Below are positions 20,277-39,503 of a DNA stretch of 64,000 nt, in pieces. The stretch is from NCBI RefSeq assembly GCF_028368995.1, contig NZ_JAQNDL010000003.1, forward strand, positions 2,592,001 through 2,656,000, in the 5' to 3' direction. Both the position numbers and the translations under genes were made by a program. The stretch is from Nannocystis bainbridge. Its GTDB lineage: Bacteria > Myxococcota_A > Polyangia > Nannocystales > Nannocystaceae. The number at the start of each line of letters is the position of its first letter. The stretch's first letter is position 1. The notes beneath the pieces were generated by a model, which did no database searches, was not told the DNA's origin, and worked only from the letters and a program-made list of their open reading frames with translations.

Positions 20277-20903
20277 GTGTCGGTCACGATCGAGGGCGAG
20301 CGCGTCGACCAGCTGCTGCGCATCATCGTGGCCGCCGCCACCGGCGACTACGAGCTGCGGGTCCCGCTGCTCGAAGAGGACGACGACGAGTTCCTCGAGG
20401 TCGAGCTCGGCGTCAACTACTTGCTCGAGGAGCTGGCGCTCGGCAAGGCCAAGAGCGACAGCCAGCGCCAGCAGCTCGAGGTGCGCGCCGAGGAGCTGGC
20501 CCACCAGCAGAGCGAGCTCGTGCAGGCGCTGTCGACCCCGGTGATCGCCGTGTGGCCGGGCGTGCTGGCGCTGCCGCTGGTCGGTCGCGTCGACGACGAG
20601 CGGGCCGCCACGATCACCGCCGTCTTGCTCGAGCGCGTCGCCGCCGAGCGTGCCACCCACGTCATCCTCGATCTCACCGGCGTCGGTGCGATCGCCGGCA
20701 ACACCATGCCGGCGCTGCTCCGCATGGTCCGCGCGATCGGCCTGCTCGGCGCCAGCTGCCTGCTCACCGGCATCAGCGCGCCCGTCGCCCAGCAGATCGT
20801 CGCGCTCGGGGCCGCCGAGGGCGGCGCGCCGGTGCGTGCGCTGGCCCAGCTGAGCGACGCGCTCGCGCTCGTGCTGGCCCAGAAAGGCGCGCTGGGGCGC
20901 TGA
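20277..20903 (+). CDS. RsbR-like STAS domain protein
   Basis: LSTPVIAVWPGVLALPLVGRVDDERA, VILDLTGV and LLGASCLLTGI. Confidence 0.85.
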   Translation: MSVTIEGERVDQLLRIIVAAATGDYELRVPLLEEDDDEFLEVELGVNYLLEELALGKAKSDSQRQQLEVRAEELAHQQSELVQALSTPVIAVWPGVLALPLVGRVDDERAATITAVLLERVAAERATHVILDLTGVGAIAGNTMPALLRMVRAIGLLGASCLLTGISAPVAQQIVALGAAEGGAPVRALAQLSDALALVLAQKGALGR

Positions 20904-20904
20904 C

Positions 20905-21255
20905 ATGCCGTTCCGCTACGAGGAGCTGGTGACGCCCATGGGCCGGCCTTACGTGCGCGTGCACGTGTCGGGCGACATCGACCTGCGCGATGCCGAGGAG
21001 TACGTGGCCAGGTTCGAGGGCGCGTACCAGCGACGGCGCGTGCTGTCGGTGGTCGCCAGCGGCACCGAGTACTCGGCCAAGGCGCGCAAGCACCTGCTGG
21101 CGATGCGCGAGAGCAGCCCGCACGCGACCGTGACGACCAGCGCGCTGGTGCGGGCGGCGATCCACCTGATGACGCGGTCCGCCGCCGGCGGCACATATCG
21201 CGTGTTCACCGACGAACCCGAGGCGCTGGCCTGGCTCGACGACCAGGAGGCATGA
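20905..21255 (+). CDS. Small STAS/SEC14 (SpoIIAA-like) protein
   Basis: 116 aa, with YSAKARK and a C-terminal RVFTDEPEALAWL signature. Confidence 0.65.
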   Translation: MPFRYEELVTPMGRPYVRVHVSGDIDLRDAEEYVARFEGAYQRRRVLSVVASGTEYSAKARKHLLAMRESSPHATVTTSALVRAAIHLMTRSAAGGTYRVFTDEPEALAWLDDQEA

Positions 21256-21882
21256 ATGTCGCTGACGATCACCGAGGCGCGCATCAACGGGCTCCTGAAC
21301 ACGCTCGTCACCGCCGCCAGCGGCGACTACGACGTCCGCGTCGCGCTCGAGGAGCACGAGGATCCGTTGCTCGACGTCGAGCTCGGCATCAACTACCTGC
21401 TCGACGAGCTGATCGAGCGCCGGACCCAGAACGAGGCCCAGGAGGAGGAGTTGCTGACGCGCGCGCGCCAGCTCGCGCGCCAGCAGGACGAGCTGGTGCA
21501 GGCGCTCTCGACCCCGGTGATCGCCGTGTGGCCCGGCGTGCTGGCGCTGCCGCTGGTCGGTCGCATCGACGACGCGCGGGCCGCCGTCATCACCGCCACC
21601 CTGCTGGAGCGCATCGCCGCCGAGCGGGCAAGCCACGTCATCCTCGATCTCACCGGCGTCGCCGCGATCGCCGACGCCACCATGCCGGCGCTGCTCCGCA
21701 TGATCCGCGCGATCGGCCTGCTCGGCGCCCGCTGCTTGCTCACTGGCATCCGCGCCGAAGTCGCCCCGCAGATCGTCGCGCTCGGCGGCAACGACCTCCA
21801 CGTCCGCGCCCTCGCGCGACTGTCCGACGCGCTCGCCCTGGTGCTCGCCGACAAGGGCGCGCTCGACCAGCCCCACCGATAG
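21256..21882 (+). CDS. RsbR-like STAS domain protein (paralog)
   Basis: Near-identical STAS core to the 20277 gene. Confidence 0.85.
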   Translation: MSLTITEARINGLLNTLVTAASGDYDVRVALEEHEDPLLDVELGINYLLDELIERRTQNEAQEEELLTRARQLARQQDELVQALSTPVIAVWPGVLALPLVGRIDDARAAVITATLLERIAAERASHVILDLTGVAAIADATMPALLRMIRAIGLLGARCLLTGIRAEVAPQIVALGGNDLHVRALARLSDALALVLADKGALDQPHR

Positions 21883-21895
21883 GACCTGACCGCCC

Positions 21896-22258
21896 ATGCC
21901 GTTCGTTTTCGCAGAGGCCACGACCCCGCAGGGCAAACCACTGCTGCGGATCCACGTCCGCGACGAGGTCACGATCACCGACGCCGAGGCGCTCGGCGCC
22001 CGCATCGAGGACGACGGGCCCAACCATCGCTGGCGGATCCTCAGCGTCGTCGAGAAGGGCACCGAATACTCGCCCGCGGCCCGCAGGTACTTCCCCAACC
22101 TGCAGCCCAAGTACGGCGCGATCGCCGTCGCCGTCACCAGCCCGATCGTGCGCGCCGCGATCAACATGATGATGCGGCTGACGGGCCAGGCGCCGAACTT
22201 GCGCCTGTTCTCCAGCGAGGCCGAGGCCCTGGCCTGGCTGGACCAGCTCGAGATCTGA
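21896..22258 (+). CDS. Small STAS/SEC14 (SpoIIAA-like) protein (paralog)
   Basis: GTEYSPAARR and RLFSSEAEALAWL. Similar to the 20905 gene. Confidence 0.65.
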   Translation: MPFVFAEATTPQGKPLLRIHVRDEVTITDAEALGARIEDDGPNHRWRILSVVEKGTEYSPAARRYFPNLQPKYGAIAVAVTSPIVRAAINMMMRLTGQAPNLRLFSSEAEALAWLDQLEI

Positions 22259-34281: not shown

Positions 34282-36066
34282 TCAGCGCAGCTCGACCGTC
34301 GCCCCGACCGCGTGCAGCAGCTCCTGGTGCGCCATCGCGGCCTCGCGGGCGACCGCCGCCTTGATCAGCGTCGGCGCGGCCTCGACCAGGTCCTTGGCCT
34401 CCTTGAGCCCGAGCCCGGTGATGGCGCGCACCTCCTTGATCACCGAGATCTTGTTCGGCCCGCACACCTGCAGGAACAGGTCGACCTCGGCCGCCACGCC
34501 CCGCTCCGCCTCGCGCAGCTCGACGGCCGCCCCGAGCGCGACGAGCTGCTGCGCCAGCGCGCTCGCCTCGCTGCGCGGCAGCCCCGAGCGCACCACCGCG
34601 CCGGCCGTCTCCGACATGTCCTTGGACTCCTTGAGCCCGAGCCCGGTCACCTCGCGGATCAGCTTGATCACCATGATCTTCTGCGGCCCGCAGTCGTTCA
34701 GCACCACGTCGATCGGCGTCAGGTCGTCGTCCTCGTCCTCGTCCAGCGCCTGGCCGCGGATCTCCACCCGCGCGCCCGCGGCCGTCAGCGCCTCCGCGAG
34801 CCTGCGCGCCTCGTCCCCGCGCAGGCCCTCCTTGATCATGACGTCGGTCGACTCGGACAAGTCCTTGGCGTCCTTGAGCCCGAGCCCCGTAGCCTCGCGG
34901 ATCAGCTTGATCACGCTGATCTTGTTCTCGCCGTGGTGGCGCAAGATCACCCCGAAGCCGCGGCTCGGCTCGGGCAGCGCTGCCGGCGGCGGCGGGGCTG
35001 CGGCACGGAGCTCGACCTGTGCGCCCACGAGCAGCAGCGCCTGCTGGAGCACCCGCGCATCGAACTCGCCCACGCCCTGCTTGATCACCGAGTCGGCGGC
35101 CTCGGACAGGTCCTTGGCGTCCTTGAGCCCGAGCGTGGTGTGGTCGCGGATGACCTTGATGACGTTGATCTTGTTCGGCCCGTGGTGCTGCAGCACCACG
35201 TCGAAGCGCGAGCCCGACGCGAATTGCGGCGTCGCTGTCGGCGCCGCACGTGGCGCCCCGCGGACCGACACCTGCGCGCCCACGGCTGCCAGCGCCCGCT
35301 CGAGCGCCCGCGCCTCCGGCTCGTCCAGGCCTTGTCGGATCACCACGTCGATCGACTCGGACAGATCCTTGGCCTCCTTCAGCCCGAGCCCGGTGGCCTC
35401 GCGGACCAGCTTGACGACATCGATCTTGCGCGTGCCGAAGTGGTGGAGGATCACCGCGAAGCCGTCCGCAGGCGCGCTCGCCGGGGCCGCGCCGCCGGTC
35501 ACCAGGGTCGGCGTTGCGCTGCTGCCCGTCGCGCCCCACGTCACCGCCGCCGACGCTCCGCTTGTCTCGCGCTCCGCCGGCGCGCTGCCGTCGTGCCCGC
35601 GGACCTCGACGATCGCCCCGGCCTCGACCAACTCGTGGCGCAGCGCCTCTGCCTCGTCCTGGGCGAGCCGCCGCTTCAGCAGGCACGGCGCGTCGTCGAC
35701 CAGCTCGACCGCCTCGCGCAGCCCGAGGCCCATCATCATCTTCAGCGCGCGCACGACGTTGATCTTGTTGTCGCCGCGGTCGCGCAGGTACACGTCGAAG
35801 AACGCCGGCGCTGGCGCGGCGCCGTGGGTCCGCAGCTCGACCGTCGCGCCGACGGCCACCAGCTTGACGCGCAGCGCCTCGGCCAGCGCCGGGGCGATCC
35901 GCGTCCGGATCGCGCTCGGGGCCCGGGCCACCAGCTCGGCGGCCGCGGCCGCCTCGAGGCCCGTCATCGCCCGCACCGCCTCGGCCACCGCCGCCGGGTT
36001 CGCCCCGGCTTCGCGCAGGATCACGTCCTGCGGGACAAATTCGCCCGTCTGGCCTCCGCCCGTCAT
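34282..36066 (-). CDS. Protein of seven tandem ribosomal bL12 (L7/L12) C-terminal domains
   Basis: Seven ~68-aa repeats of FDV.L...G.NKI.VIK.IRE.TGLGLKEAKDL.E...GA.VELR. Confidence 0.88.
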   Translation of the reverse strand: MTGGGQTGEFVPQDVILREAGANPAAVAEAVRAMTGLEAAAAAELVARAPSAIRTRIAPALAEALRVKLVAVGATVELRTHGAAPAPAFFDVYLRDRGDNKINVVRALKMMMGLGLREAVELVDDAPCLLKRRLAQDEAEALRHELVEAGAIVEVRGHDGSAPAERETSGASAAVTWGATGSSATPTLVTGGAAPASAPADGFAVILHHFGTRKIDVVKLVREATGLGLKEAKDLSESIDVVIRQGLDEPEARALERALAAVGAQVSVRGAPRAAPTATPQFASGSRFDVVLQHHGPNKINVIKVIRDHTTLGLKDAKDLSEAADSVIKQGVGEFDARVLQQALLLVGAQVELRAAAPPPPAALPEPSRGFGVILRHHGENKISVIKLIREATGLGLKDAKDLSESTDVMIKEGLRGDEARRLAEALTAAGARVEIRGQALDEDEDDDLTPIDVVLNDCGPQKIMVIKLIREVTGLGLKESKDMSETAGAVVRSGLPRSEASALAQQLVALGAAVELREAERGVAAEVDLFLQVCGPNKISVIKEVRAITGLGLKEAKDLVEAAPTLIKAAVAREAAMAHQELLHAVGATVELR

Positions 36067-36287
36067 CGCTCGACCTCCGGGGCCGACGATACCCGAATCA
36101 CCGCGGCACCGTCGCGTCCGCGGACACGGGCGTGTTCGCACCGAGCACCCCGTCGGTGGTCTCGCCCCCCACACCGCGTCCCGGGCGCGATCTCCCGCCA
36201 GCGCCGGGCCGTCCCGCTGCTGCGCTCGCCGGGTCGCTCGAGCAATCCCCCTCGCGCCTCGGCCGACTTCGCCCCGCACCCGGTCGT

Positions 36288-36343
36288 ATCACCTCAGGAC
36301 ATGTCCTCAAGAACATATCCTCAAGGACATGCCCCTTCAGACA
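36288..36343. repeat. Head-to-tail chain of 14-bp TGTC-N6-GACA variants
   Basis: ...GGACA|TGTCCTCAAGAACA|TATCCTCAAGGACA|TGCCCCTTCAGACA. Confidence 0.75.
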
Positions 36344-36345
36344 TC

Positions 36346-37844
<1,499 letters not shown>

Positions 37845-37848
<4 letters not shown>

Positions 37849-38302: not shown

Positions 38303-38368
38303 ATTGCGCCGACGCCGCGGCCGATTGGGCGCGTGACAGTCGTCGCGCGGGGACCCTACACTCTCGGC

Positions 38369-39142
38369 GTGCTTCGTCGCGTCGTCGCCGCTCGCTATGT
38401 CGTTCCGTTGCGGGAGGGCGGCTCGTTACCCGGCGTCGTCGAGGCCGACGACGGCCGCTCCTACGTCGTGAAGTTCCGCGCCGCTGGCCAGGGAGCGCGC
38501 GCTCTGGTCGCCGAGATCGTGGTCGGCGAGCTGGGCCGCACGCTCGGCTTGCCGGTGCCGGAGCTGGTGATCGTCGAGCTCGACGCGGGCGTCGGCCGCA
38601 ACGAGGGCGACCCCGAGATCCGCGACCTCGTGGTGGCGAGCGCCGGCGACAACGTCGGCATGACTTTCTTGGCCAGCGCGATCGGCTTCGACCCCGCGGC
38701 CCGGCCGAAGCTCGATCCGTCGCTCGCCGCCCGCACCGTCGCCTTCGACGCCTTCGCCCAGAACATGGACCGCACGGCCAAGAACACCAACCTGCTGTGG
38801 TGCGCCGGCAAGCTGTGGCTCATCGATCACGGCGCGGCGCTCTACTGGCAGCACGACTGGGACGGCGGCCTCGCCGGCGTCGACTCCAAGTTCCCGCTGA
38901 TCGCCAACCACGTGCTGCTCCCGTGGGCCAGCCCCATCGCGGCCGAGGCCGAGTGGTTGACCGCGGGCCTCACCGACGCGGCGATCGACGCGGCCACCGC
39001 GGCGGTGCCCGAGGCGTGGTGGACGGCCCCGCCCGCGCTGCCGCCTGACGAGTTCCGGGCCGCCTTCACTGCCCGTCTGCGAGCCCGCCGCGACGCCGCG
39101 GCCGTCTACCTGGAGGAGGCCGACCGTGCGCGCGCCGTTTGA
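38369..39142 (+). CDS. HipA-like kinase (HipA_2 type)
   Basis: RYVVPLREGGSLP, VVKFRAAGQG, NMDRTAKNTNLL and LIDHGA. Confidence 0.8.
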   Translation: MLRRVVAARYVVPLREGGSLPGVVEADDGRSYVVKFRAAGQGARALVAEIVVGELGRTLGLPVPELVIVELDAGVGRNEGDPEIRDLVVASAGDNVGMTFLASAIGFDPAARPKLDPSLAARTVAFDAFAQNMDRTAKNTNLLWCAGKLWLIDHGAALYWQHDWDGGLAGVDSKFPLIANHVLLPWASPIAAEAEWLTAGLTDAAIDAATAAVPEAWWTAPPALPPDEFRAAFTARLRARRDAAAVYLEEADRARAV

Positions 39143-39503
39143 TTACGCGATCGTCCGGGTGGTCCCGCGGGTCGAGCGGGAGGAGTTCGTCAACGTGGGC
39201 GTCATCGTCCACGCGCCGACCCTCGGCTTCCTCGGCTGCGCCCTCGCCCTCGACCGCCACCGCGTGCACGCCCTCGCCGACACCGTCGACCTCGAGGCGC
39301 TCACCCGCCACTTGGACGCCTTCCGCGCGGTCTGCTACGGCGACCAGGGCGCCGGCTCGATCGCCGCCCTGCCGATCTCCGAGCGCTTCCACTGGCTGGT
39401 CGCCCCGCGCAGCACCATCATCCAGACCTCCGCGGTCCACGGCGGCGTGTGCACCGACGCGACCTTCGCTCTGCGCGACCTGTTTAAAAAACGCGTGGTC
39501 TGA
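39126..39503 (+). CDS. DUF3037-family protein
   Basis: FDYAIVRVVPRVEREEFVNVGVI and ERFHWLVAPRSTIIQTS. Overlaps the kinase gene. Confidence 0.85.
   Translation: MRAPFDYAIVRVVPRVEREEFVNVGVIVHAPTLGFLGCALALDRHRVHALADTVDLEALTRHLDAFRAVCYGDQGAGSIAALPISERFHWLVAPRSTIIQTSAVHGGVCTDATFALRDLFKKRVV

Follow-up and report, generated by a model that had tools for sequence, protein, structure and literature searches.

A seven-domain tandem array of bL12-type C-terminal domains in Nannocystis bainbridge: a candidate off-ribosome stalk

Background

In the ribosomal stalk, L10(L12)4-8, the protein bL12 is present as four to eight separate chains. To our knowledge, its C-terminal domain (CTD) is a universal landing pad for translational GTPases that has been studied almost only on the ribosome; residue-level detail of factor binding by the L12 CTD was reportedly provided by Helgstrand in 2007 and Diaconu in 2005. 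It is established (PMC3299993, which cites Helgstrand 2007) that IF2, EF-Tu, EF-G and RF3 have their sites of interaction on the L12 CTDs, several of which, on flexible tethers, serve to recruit these factors. Here we describe a gene of the soil myxobacterium Nannocystis bainbridge, located in a 64,000-nucleotide stretch of contig NZ_JAQNDL010000003.1 (positions 2,592,001 to 2,656,000; the whole stretch is called the window below), which codes for seven bL12-type CTDs in a single polypeptide.

The product of this gene shares with ribosomal bL12 the family and the fold of the CTD (PF00542; TM-score of 0.96 to 1ctf) and, in the five domains R3-R7, the invariant residues of helix 4/5. It also resembles the stalk in carrying several CTDs on flexible tethers, although these are part of one polypeptide and not of four to eight chains. 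In contrast to bL12, it lacks the N-terminal dimerisation and L10-binding domain and so has no known route onto the ribosome, two of its CTDs are re-specialised, its gene is not part of the rplJL operon, and evolution is fast everywhere but in the conserved face.

The CARF-RelE protein Cami1 is reportedly captured by bL12. That stalk CTDs dock more than GTPases is also indicated by the parts of the sources dealing with CRISPR-associated Cami1 (PDB 8phj; PMC12179292), and non-GTPase ligands are likewise described there for eukaryotic stalks, whose P-protein tails are docking sites for ribosome-inactivating proteins (PMC4379515, in part). These proteins are stalk ligands, whereas the protein described here would be a stalk mimic. 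We know of no such stalk ligand in the Nannocystis host. A decoy explanation, considered below, would require docking of this kind. Mitochondrial MRPL12, which according to portions of PMC12523095 acts on POLRMT, provides an earlier example of an L12-family protein with a role away from the ribosome, but it is a moonlighting ribosomal protein with a single CTD and not a dedicated multi-CTD paralog beside an intact rplL. L12 CTDs have also been mentioned in passing in immune-type multidomain proteins, namely in conflict systems whose vWA components carry an 'L12/ClpS domain' as an insertion (vWA-MoxR; Kaur et al. 2020, eLife, PMC7159879, section 22) and in one cyanobacterial orthocaspase that carries Ribosomal_L12 (PMC8283722). 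TIR, PNP, KAP and kinase fusions among the relatives of the Nannocystis protein match this recruitment. However, the domains in question are single insertions; stand-alone arrays, a head and tail or surface conservation are not described in the passages concerned, and the Nannocystis protein has no effector domain.

Results and discussion

Seven CTDs in one polypeptide

34282..36066, minus strand: the whole gene, 594 codons plus stop codon (34282-34284), coding for seven bL12-type CTDs and no N-terminal L12 domain

The first-pass annotation of the window had proposed seven CTDs joined by flexible linkers, the absence of an N-terminal dimerisation/uL10-binding domain and of a signal peptide, and a location outside the rplJ-rplL locus. 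All of this was borne out. When the 594-amino acid protein was scanned with Pfam, PF00542 (Ribosomal_L12) matched in seven stretches (R1 to R7; E 5.5e-138, 449.9 bits against a cut-off of 25.9), and the same scan found neither PF16320 (the L12 N-terminal dimerisation/L10-binding domain) nor an effector domain. TIGR00855 was likewise matched in seven stretches, the best of which begins at position 56 of the 125-position profile and ends at 124, thereby covering its CTD half, and only 12 residues lie ahead of R1. There is no hydrophobic stretch in the N-terminus MTGGGQTGEFVPQD, as read by eye from the translation and not by a signal-peptide predictor. The canonical tuf-secE-nusG-rplK-rplA-rplJ-rplL-rpoB cluster is intact (contig C2, 2.125-2.134 Mb) and encodes a normal 128-amino acid rplL product; the seven-domain gene (C2, 2.626 Mb) is approximately 497 kb away from the rplJ-rplL operon.

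These results place the protein in the Ribosomal_L12 CTD superfamily. It is not a bL12 ribosomal protein, because an N-terminal domain, the length of a single-CTD protein and a position in the operon were each tested for and none of them was found. The public name of the orthologs, 'ribosomal protein L7/L12', is an over-annotation; automatic naming of this kind hides array genes and inflates the counts of ribosomal proteins.

An AlphaFold2 model built on a seven-sequence alignment contains seven beta-alpha-alpha-beta-alpha-beta domains with a predicted local distance difference test score (pLDDT) of about 80-90. The linkers, of which the longest comprises residues 162-200, have a pLDDT below 50, and the predicted TM-score (pTM) of the model is 0.24. 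These two values suggest that the protein has the predicted form of beads on a string. Sequence searches of the PDB returned 17 matches, all bL12 or mitochondrial L12. When the R1-R2 piece was modelled alone, two confident CTD folds were obtained, with 1ctf as the best structural match (target-normalised TM-score 0.96, root-mean-square deviation 0.7 Å), but the mutual packing of the two domains was not confident (pTM 0.46). A rigid R1-R2 head, which was also considered, is not supported by this value.

A ClpS-like adaptor, also proposed in the first-pass annotation, is not supported. The ClpS N-degron adaptor has a related alpha/beta fold, but the Pfam scan of the protein gave no match to the ClpS family, the ClpS chains found by Foldseek scored E 0.018 or weaker (target-normalised TM-score about 0.55-0.72, identity 10-24 per cent), and all strong structural matches were bL12. 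The ESM Atlas yielded no usable match by features and, by structure, low-TM rows only, which can serve as leads.

Two kinds of repeat

Key residues were scored at seven positions of helix 4/5 (K, K, R, G, L, K and K), which we take to be the factor site. None of the seven varies among the canonical CTDs, of which 22 were obtained from L10-L12 matches (22/22 with all seven). The boundaries of the repeats, with which six-frame hidden Markov model (HMM) matches agree, and their main properties are as follows:

35830..36030, minus strand: R1, residues 13-79, factor-binding face erased, 1/7 key residues
35599..35799, minus strand: R2, residues 90-156, face partly altered, 3/7 key residues
35260..35460, minus strand: R3, residues 203-269, canonical-like CTD, 7/7 key residues
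35005..35205, minus strand: R4, residues 288-354, canonical-like CTD, 7/7 key residues
34756..34956, minus strand: R5, residues 371-437, canonical-like CTD, 7/7 key residues, nearest to the third domain of the 3-CTD paralog (see below)
34513..34713, minus strand: R6, residues 452-518, canonical-like CTD, clean orthologous clade, ratio of non-synonymous to synonymous substitution rates (dN/dS) 0.77
34285..34482, minus strand: R7, residues 529-594, canonical-like CTD that has retained the VEAAP loop, clean orthologous clade, dN/dS 0.71

In R3-R7 all seven key residues were present in 30 of 30 repeats from six species, in agreement with the earlier claim that these repeats keep the factor surface. 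Repeat 2, described as partly altered, has indeed retained three key residues (K18R, R21K, K29R and K32V are fixed). In R1, where K18E, G27E, K29A and K32A are fixed, one is left. The description of R1 as degenerate is correct for the factor-binding motif only; as a whole, R1 is among the two best conserved repeats, with 84 per cent identity across six species.

Mean cross-species identity is 84 per cent for R1 and 85 for R2, and 67, 65, 71, 69 and 76 per cent for R3 to R7, respectively. In a tree of the repeats R1, R2, R6 and R7 form clean cross-species clades, whereas R3-R5 show lineage-specific duplication or conversion; judged from this tree, the array is old and its middle mobile. dN/dS was calculated by the Nei-Gojobori method for 10 genome pairs and, over the same pairs, for six neighbour genes. 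The GC content at third codon positions (GC3) of 93 per cent inflates all ratios, which makes the contrast alone meaningful, and R3-R5 were compared by position and not by strict orthology. With these provisos, the values were 0.32 (R1), 0.26 (R2), 0.61-0.85 (R3-R7), 0.95 (long linker) and 0.67 (whole gene), as compared to 0.13-0.30 for the neighbour genes (n=6). At non-synonymous sites R3-R7 evolve 3-4 times faster than the neighbours. Taking into account that the key residues of R3-R7 are intact in 30 of 30 repeats while the rest of these domains evolves fast, constraint on R3-R7 is concentrated on the helix 4/5 face and the core.

A separately conserved head

R1 and R2 are not decaying; they are the best conserved repeats in terms of both identity (84-85 per cent) and dN/dS (0.26-0.32). 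They make up a separately conserved head, which has a linear motif of its own:

35533..35595, minus strand: H-[DE]-x-[SG]-A-P-x-E-R...V-T-W-G motif, residues 158-178, invariant columns, pLDDT 24-38

The motif, referred to as SAPPER...VTWG, directly follows R2, where the long linker between R2 and R3, predicted to be disordered, begins. Every Nannocystis ortholog has it, as does the 3-CTD paralog. R1-type and R2-type domains also come first in the metagenomic relatives that have 4-5 CTDs.

L12-CTD arrays form a large family

When 1.84 billion representatives were searched exhaustively with phmmer, there were 8675 proteins at E<=1e-3, 629 clusters at <=1e-10 and 37 at <=1e-30. A repeat HMM applied to 244 collected proteins detected at least one CTD in 239 and at least two in 180. 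The numbers of proteins with one to eight CTDs were 59, 74, 57, 22, 13, 5, 8 and 1, respectively; these CTD counts are lower bounds, many of the proteins being from short contigs. The family is large and uncharacterised. Although the domain itself is known, its arrangement here, as an array that stands alone and has a specialised head, is new: no description of stand-alone tandem L12-CTD proteins was found in the literature, although supplementary tables of the papers that mention single L12 domains (PMC7159879, PMC8283722) might list further architectures.

A Pfam survey of architectures, of the kind suggested in the first-pass annotation, covered the 46 relatives in which two or more CTDs are accompanied by 150 or more additional residues, and revealed TIR, kinase, PNP, STAND/KAP and LRV fusions. 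The domains detected were TIR_2 (9/46), TIR (5/46), Pkinase (4/46), LRV, PNP_UDP_1, Pentapeptide, Dockerin_1, Ig_2, Ig_3, I-set, SprB and DUF6793 (2/46 each), and KAP_NTPase, FGE-sulfatase, Dynamin_N, Band_7, fn3, DZR, EF-Tu domain 2 and EF-Tu domain 3 (1/46 each). Examples are TIR_2 with four CTDs (P0140), PNP_UDP_1 and pentapeptide with three CTDs (P0145), and Dynamin_N with CTDs. The recurrence of TIR, kinase, PNP and STAND fusions points to a connection, open to testing, of immune or signalling effectors of bacteria with the translation machinery.

Out of seven key residues, the CTDs of the cytoplasmic TIR, KAP, PNP and LRV fusions have on average 5.9 (13 CTDs), 6.0 (4), 6.4 (5) and 6.2 (11), whereas those of the dynamin and of the presumably extracellular dockerin/Ig/fn3 fusions have 1.4 (5 CTDs) and 3.0 (14); the classes were picked by us, are small (4-45 CTDs each), and the term 'extracellular' used for some of them is based on domain names. 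R1, the divergent paralog on contig C5 (3/7, see below) and the dynamin and dockerin/Ig/fn3 fusions fold or score as CTDs without the face. According to this pattern, the fold does not need the helix 4/5 face, which is retained where there are ligands to be had in the cytoplasm. In fusions for which a translation factor is not a possible ligand, the key residues have been lost (3.0/7 on average in the extracellular-type fusions); this, like the intact key residues of R3-R7, fits the first-pass idea that the repeats still use the canonical stalk surface.

A collection of phage sequences was also searched. Nineteen records matched, none of them with an array. The 15 records listed each match approximately one CTD-sized stretch; the annotated ones are labelled rplL or L7/L12, and several records look bacterial. 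On these grounds (single CTD-sized stretches, no arrays) a phage origin was rejected.

The array as a proposed off-ribosome stalk

The reading that we favour, at a little short of an even chance, is that the protein acts off the ribosome as a 'single-chain stalk', which binds stalk clients, mainly translational GTPases, while its head docks on another partner. The product would be soluble, probably cytoplasmic and independent of the ribosome. R3-R7 would most likely bind the same clients as the ribosomal stalk, because they keep the factor face while the rest drifts; these would be translational GTPases and possibly other stalk-docking proteins. Since R1-R2 are under ordinary purifying selection on a different surface, they would, together with the SAPPER...VTWG tail, most likely dock the array onto a second partner. 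The net effect could be that translation factors are concentrated or sequestered at the partner of the head, the array serving as a regulatory scaffold or a sponge. All binding events, and the physiological effect of the protein, are ones that we infer. If the reading is true, a dedicated protein that acts off the ribosome, offers five intact landing pads and has a separate conserved head would be a novel means of regulating, monitoring or protecting translation. The array coexists with a normal rplL and was kept in the four large genomes of the same genus that were searched.

When the G/G' domain of the str-operon EF-G (24-row alignment) was modelled in complex with R5 (residues 366-440), the scores were 0.11 and 0.05 against a mark of 0.32, in a prediction made without controls, so that this result speaks neither for nor against binding.

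Several considerations weigh against the single-chain stalk. The affinity of a single L12 CTD for factors is low, and multivalency gives no avidity towards monomeric factors; a pure 'sponge' would therefore need high expression. An arms race, and not a relaxation of constraint, could be the reason why R3-R7 evolve fast, and the dN/dS values are Nei-Gojobori estimates at 93 per cent GC3, positional for R3-R5. The head is defined by conservation and not by structure (R1-R2 pTM 0.46), and the architectural classes are small and chosen by us. Finally, the ligands of the conserved face could be stalk-docking molecules other than GTPases; the part of PDB entry 8phj considered here shows such a case, CRISPR-associated Cami1 with bL12 on the ribosome.

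The alternative that fares best is one we consider unlikely but worth serious attention: the array would be a decoy or sensor of the stalk, imitating it to capture molecules that attack or exploit bL12 (phage proteins, stalk-docking toxins or RNases), and would either soak these up or report them to the partner bound by the head. It would then correspond to the arrays fused to TIR, STAND, PNP and kinase modules, but lack the effector. In the effector fusions counted above (TIR_2, TIR, Pkinase, PNP_UDP_1 and KAP_NTPase) the arrays do occupy the usual position of sensor repeats, dN/dS is high outside the conserved face, and an overlapping pair of genes for a HipA_2-like kinase and a DUF3037 protein (38333-39503 of the window, plus strand), located 2-3 kb from the array gene and 88-96 per cent identical in four sister genomes, matches the PADLOC candidates PDC-M66A/B (E 2.8e-19 and 1.2e-9). 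The presence of L12 domains in the orthocaspase and the vWA conflict-system components, as far as these are covered by the passing mentions (PMC8283722; PMC7159879 section 22), and of an immune RNase with bL12 on the 70S ribosome (PDB 8phj, in part) fit the same picture. On the other hand, the seven-domain protein itself matched no model of PADLOC-DB 2.0, the other flanking genes are housekeeping-like (ferredoxin, DEAD-box helicase, sigma-54 enhancer-binding protein), synteny is stable in four of four sister loci, unlike that of variable island cargo, and no array was present among the 19 matched phage records (15 listed). We know of no stalk-targeting agent for the Nannocystis lineage. The first-pass annotation had offered both a sponge or scaffold and a decoy acting through the stalk surface: that surface is kept in R3-R7, but the evidence cannot separate the two.

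A broader version, which we hold to be improbable though not fanciful, is that L12-CTD arrays are a portable 'stalk' module, in wide use among bacteria, by which enzymes of immunity and signalling (TIR NADases, Ser/Thr kinases, PNP nucleosidases, STAND/KAP NTPases and caspases) are wired to the translation apparatus, the Nannocystis protein being a trans-acting, effector-less version. The arrays could recruit translation GTPases as substrates, or could act as an integrated stalk decoy that senses bL12-docking invader proteins, and the R1-R2-SAPPER/VTWG head would plug the Nannocystis protein into a separate effector or regulator. If true, bacteria would have an equivalent of the integrated decoys found in plant NLRs, with a ribosomal protein as its building material.

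Orthologs and gene neighbourhood

The host genome is 11.05 Mb in size with 71-72 per cent GC. Orthologs of the seven-domain protein (63-70 per cent identity) were found in four of the seven other genomes of the genus; these four are about 12-13 Mb, and the three without an ortholog are fragmented assemblies of 5-7 Mb that are 82-88 per cent complete. Nannocystis exedens, a species that can be cultured, carries an ortholog of 68 per cent identity (P0002). Multi-CTD homologs of approximately 35 per cent identity occur in two of five genomes of a second genus, and the remaining 15 genera of the family yielded no such homolog at E<=1e-20. The gene is located between a convergent membrane-protein gene and the following gene:

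36346..37848, minus strand: sigma-54 enhancer-binding protein (EBP) with an AAA+ Sigma54_activat domain, N-terminal 185 residues unassigned; upstream of the array gene on the same strand

The order DEAD helicase / DUF3037 / HipA_2 / ferredoxin / EBP / array gene is the same in all four sister loci; the opposite flank is not conserved among them. In two of the four an insert of about 1.5 kb separates the EBP and array genes (L022 7400-9060, L023 10880-12370). The GC content at second codon positions is unusually high in the open reading frames (ORFs) of the inserts, which are perhaps not genes at all.

This neighbourhood bears on a third explanation, according to which the array is a generic scaffold for non-translational ligands, e.g. 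the transcription machinery, with its expression or its partner perhaps tied to the adjacent sigma-54 activator. The EBP and array genes are adjacent on the same strand in five of five genomes, MRPL12 promotes transcription through POLRMT (PMC12523095, in the portions used here), and Kaur et al., in the section cited, term the L12/ClpS domain 'multimerizing' (PMC7159879). However, the invariant face of R3-R7 is exactly the one that is invariant in ribosomal L12, there is an insert between the two genes in two sister genomes, neither the 3-CTD paralog nor the second-genus homologs have an EBP neighbour, and the sigma-54 promoter motif TGG-N9-TGC was not found in the 450 nucleotides upstream of the array gene in any of the five genomes. 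We regard a generic scaffold as distinctly improbable, and a link to the EBP in particular is disfavoured by its absence beside the paralog and the second-genus homologs.

Other L12-type genes and possible clients

The host genome contains 14 PF00542 matches. Among 150 other genomes of the phylum, 142 have a match, mostly one and at most four. Besides the array gene and rplL, the matches include two multidomain paralogs:

C2:2797616-2798506, minus strand: 3-CTD paralog of 296 amino acids, sharing the R1-R2 head and the SAPPER...VTWG tail
C5:8501-8881, minus strand: divergent L12-like gene of 126 amino acids with an N-terminal domain and a CTD that has 3/7 key residues

In the 3-CTD paralog R1 and R2 are each 74 per cent identical to those of the seven-domain protein, and the head and tail are followed by a Pro/Ser-rich linker and one R5-like CTD with 4/7 key residues. 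The product of the C5 gene could be an L10-binding, factor-blind stalk subunit. Two further PF00542 matches are weak and single-domain.

The divergent C5 paralog hints at stalk heterogeneity, as would be expected if the array were an accessory, ribosome-bound stalk, in which the head replaces the L12 N-terminal domain (on L10, L11 or rRNA) and adds five factor-recruiting CTDs to specialised ribosomes. It is also consistent with this idea that IF2 and EF-G function is affected by how many copies of L12 a ribosome carries (excerpts of PMC3299993). Nevertheless, the array has no PF16320 or recognisable L10-binding element, its head is made of CTD folds and its gene is unlinked to ribosomal genes, all of which make an accessory stalk very unlikely.

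The C5 gene is flanked by two ORFs of about 1000 amino acids with Ser/Thr kinase-like N-termini. A weak L12-CTD match (E 7.1e-6) was seen at C2:1542713-1542886 on the minus strand, inside a 377-amino acid frame, preceded by an N-terminal region and followed by a Cys-rich C-terminus; the architectures of the metagenomic multi-CTD relatives of the 'TIGR02996 family' (P0036, P0040, P0046) may be related to that of this frame. The genome also has two full-length EF-G paralogs, 42 per cent identical to each other (C2:1702352-1704493 and C2:2116781-2119039), one of them beside a tuf copy, and two copies of tuf. The possible pool of GTPase clients is therefore itself duplicated.

Translation start and upstream region

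The open frame on the minus strand extends from a GTG (34282..36279, 665 amino acids). The true start is the ATG at 36066, yielding the product of 594 amino acids, because the orthologs in named Nannocystis species have 593-597 amino acids, a GGAGG is located 7 nucleotides upstream of this ATG, and only the last approximately 35 nucleotides upstream are conserved, in five of five genomes. The GTG start at 36279 was rejected, as its 71-residue Arg-rich extension corresponds to non-conserved upstream sequence. Upstream conservation is confined to the following element:

36074..36099, minus strand: conserved block GATTCGGGTATCGTCG (36084-36099), then the Shine-Dalgarno sequence GGAGG (36074-36078), in 5/5 genomes

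A simple scan of the upstream region for a sigma-70 consensus and a terminator found no sites.

The high overall dN/dS (0.67, above the neighbours) might suggest a decaying or non-functional duplicate, or an annotation or assembly artefact, but this can practically be dismissed in view of the intact frame, the unchanged positions of all seven domains in five genomes whose protein sequences differ by 30-38 per cent, the low dN/dS of R1-R2, the invariant key residues in 30 of 30 repeats, the conserved Shine-Dalgarno sequence and a GC3 of 0.93, which is typical for coding sequence of this genome. Moreover, the repeats are merely 73 per cent alike at the DNA level and the gene recurs in four other genomes, so that an assembly artefact, already thought unlikely in the first-pass annotation, is not the explanation.

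Two minor features of the window are mentioned here. Just past the stop codon of the EBP gene, at 36292-36333 (minus-strand reading), there are three direct CATGTCC(T)TGAGG-like repeats of 13-15 nucleotides, which are not conserved in the sister genomes. At 20277-22258 on the plus strand, a two-gene module (208 plus 116-120 amino acids) is present in two tandem copies, the N-termini of which are clearly related.

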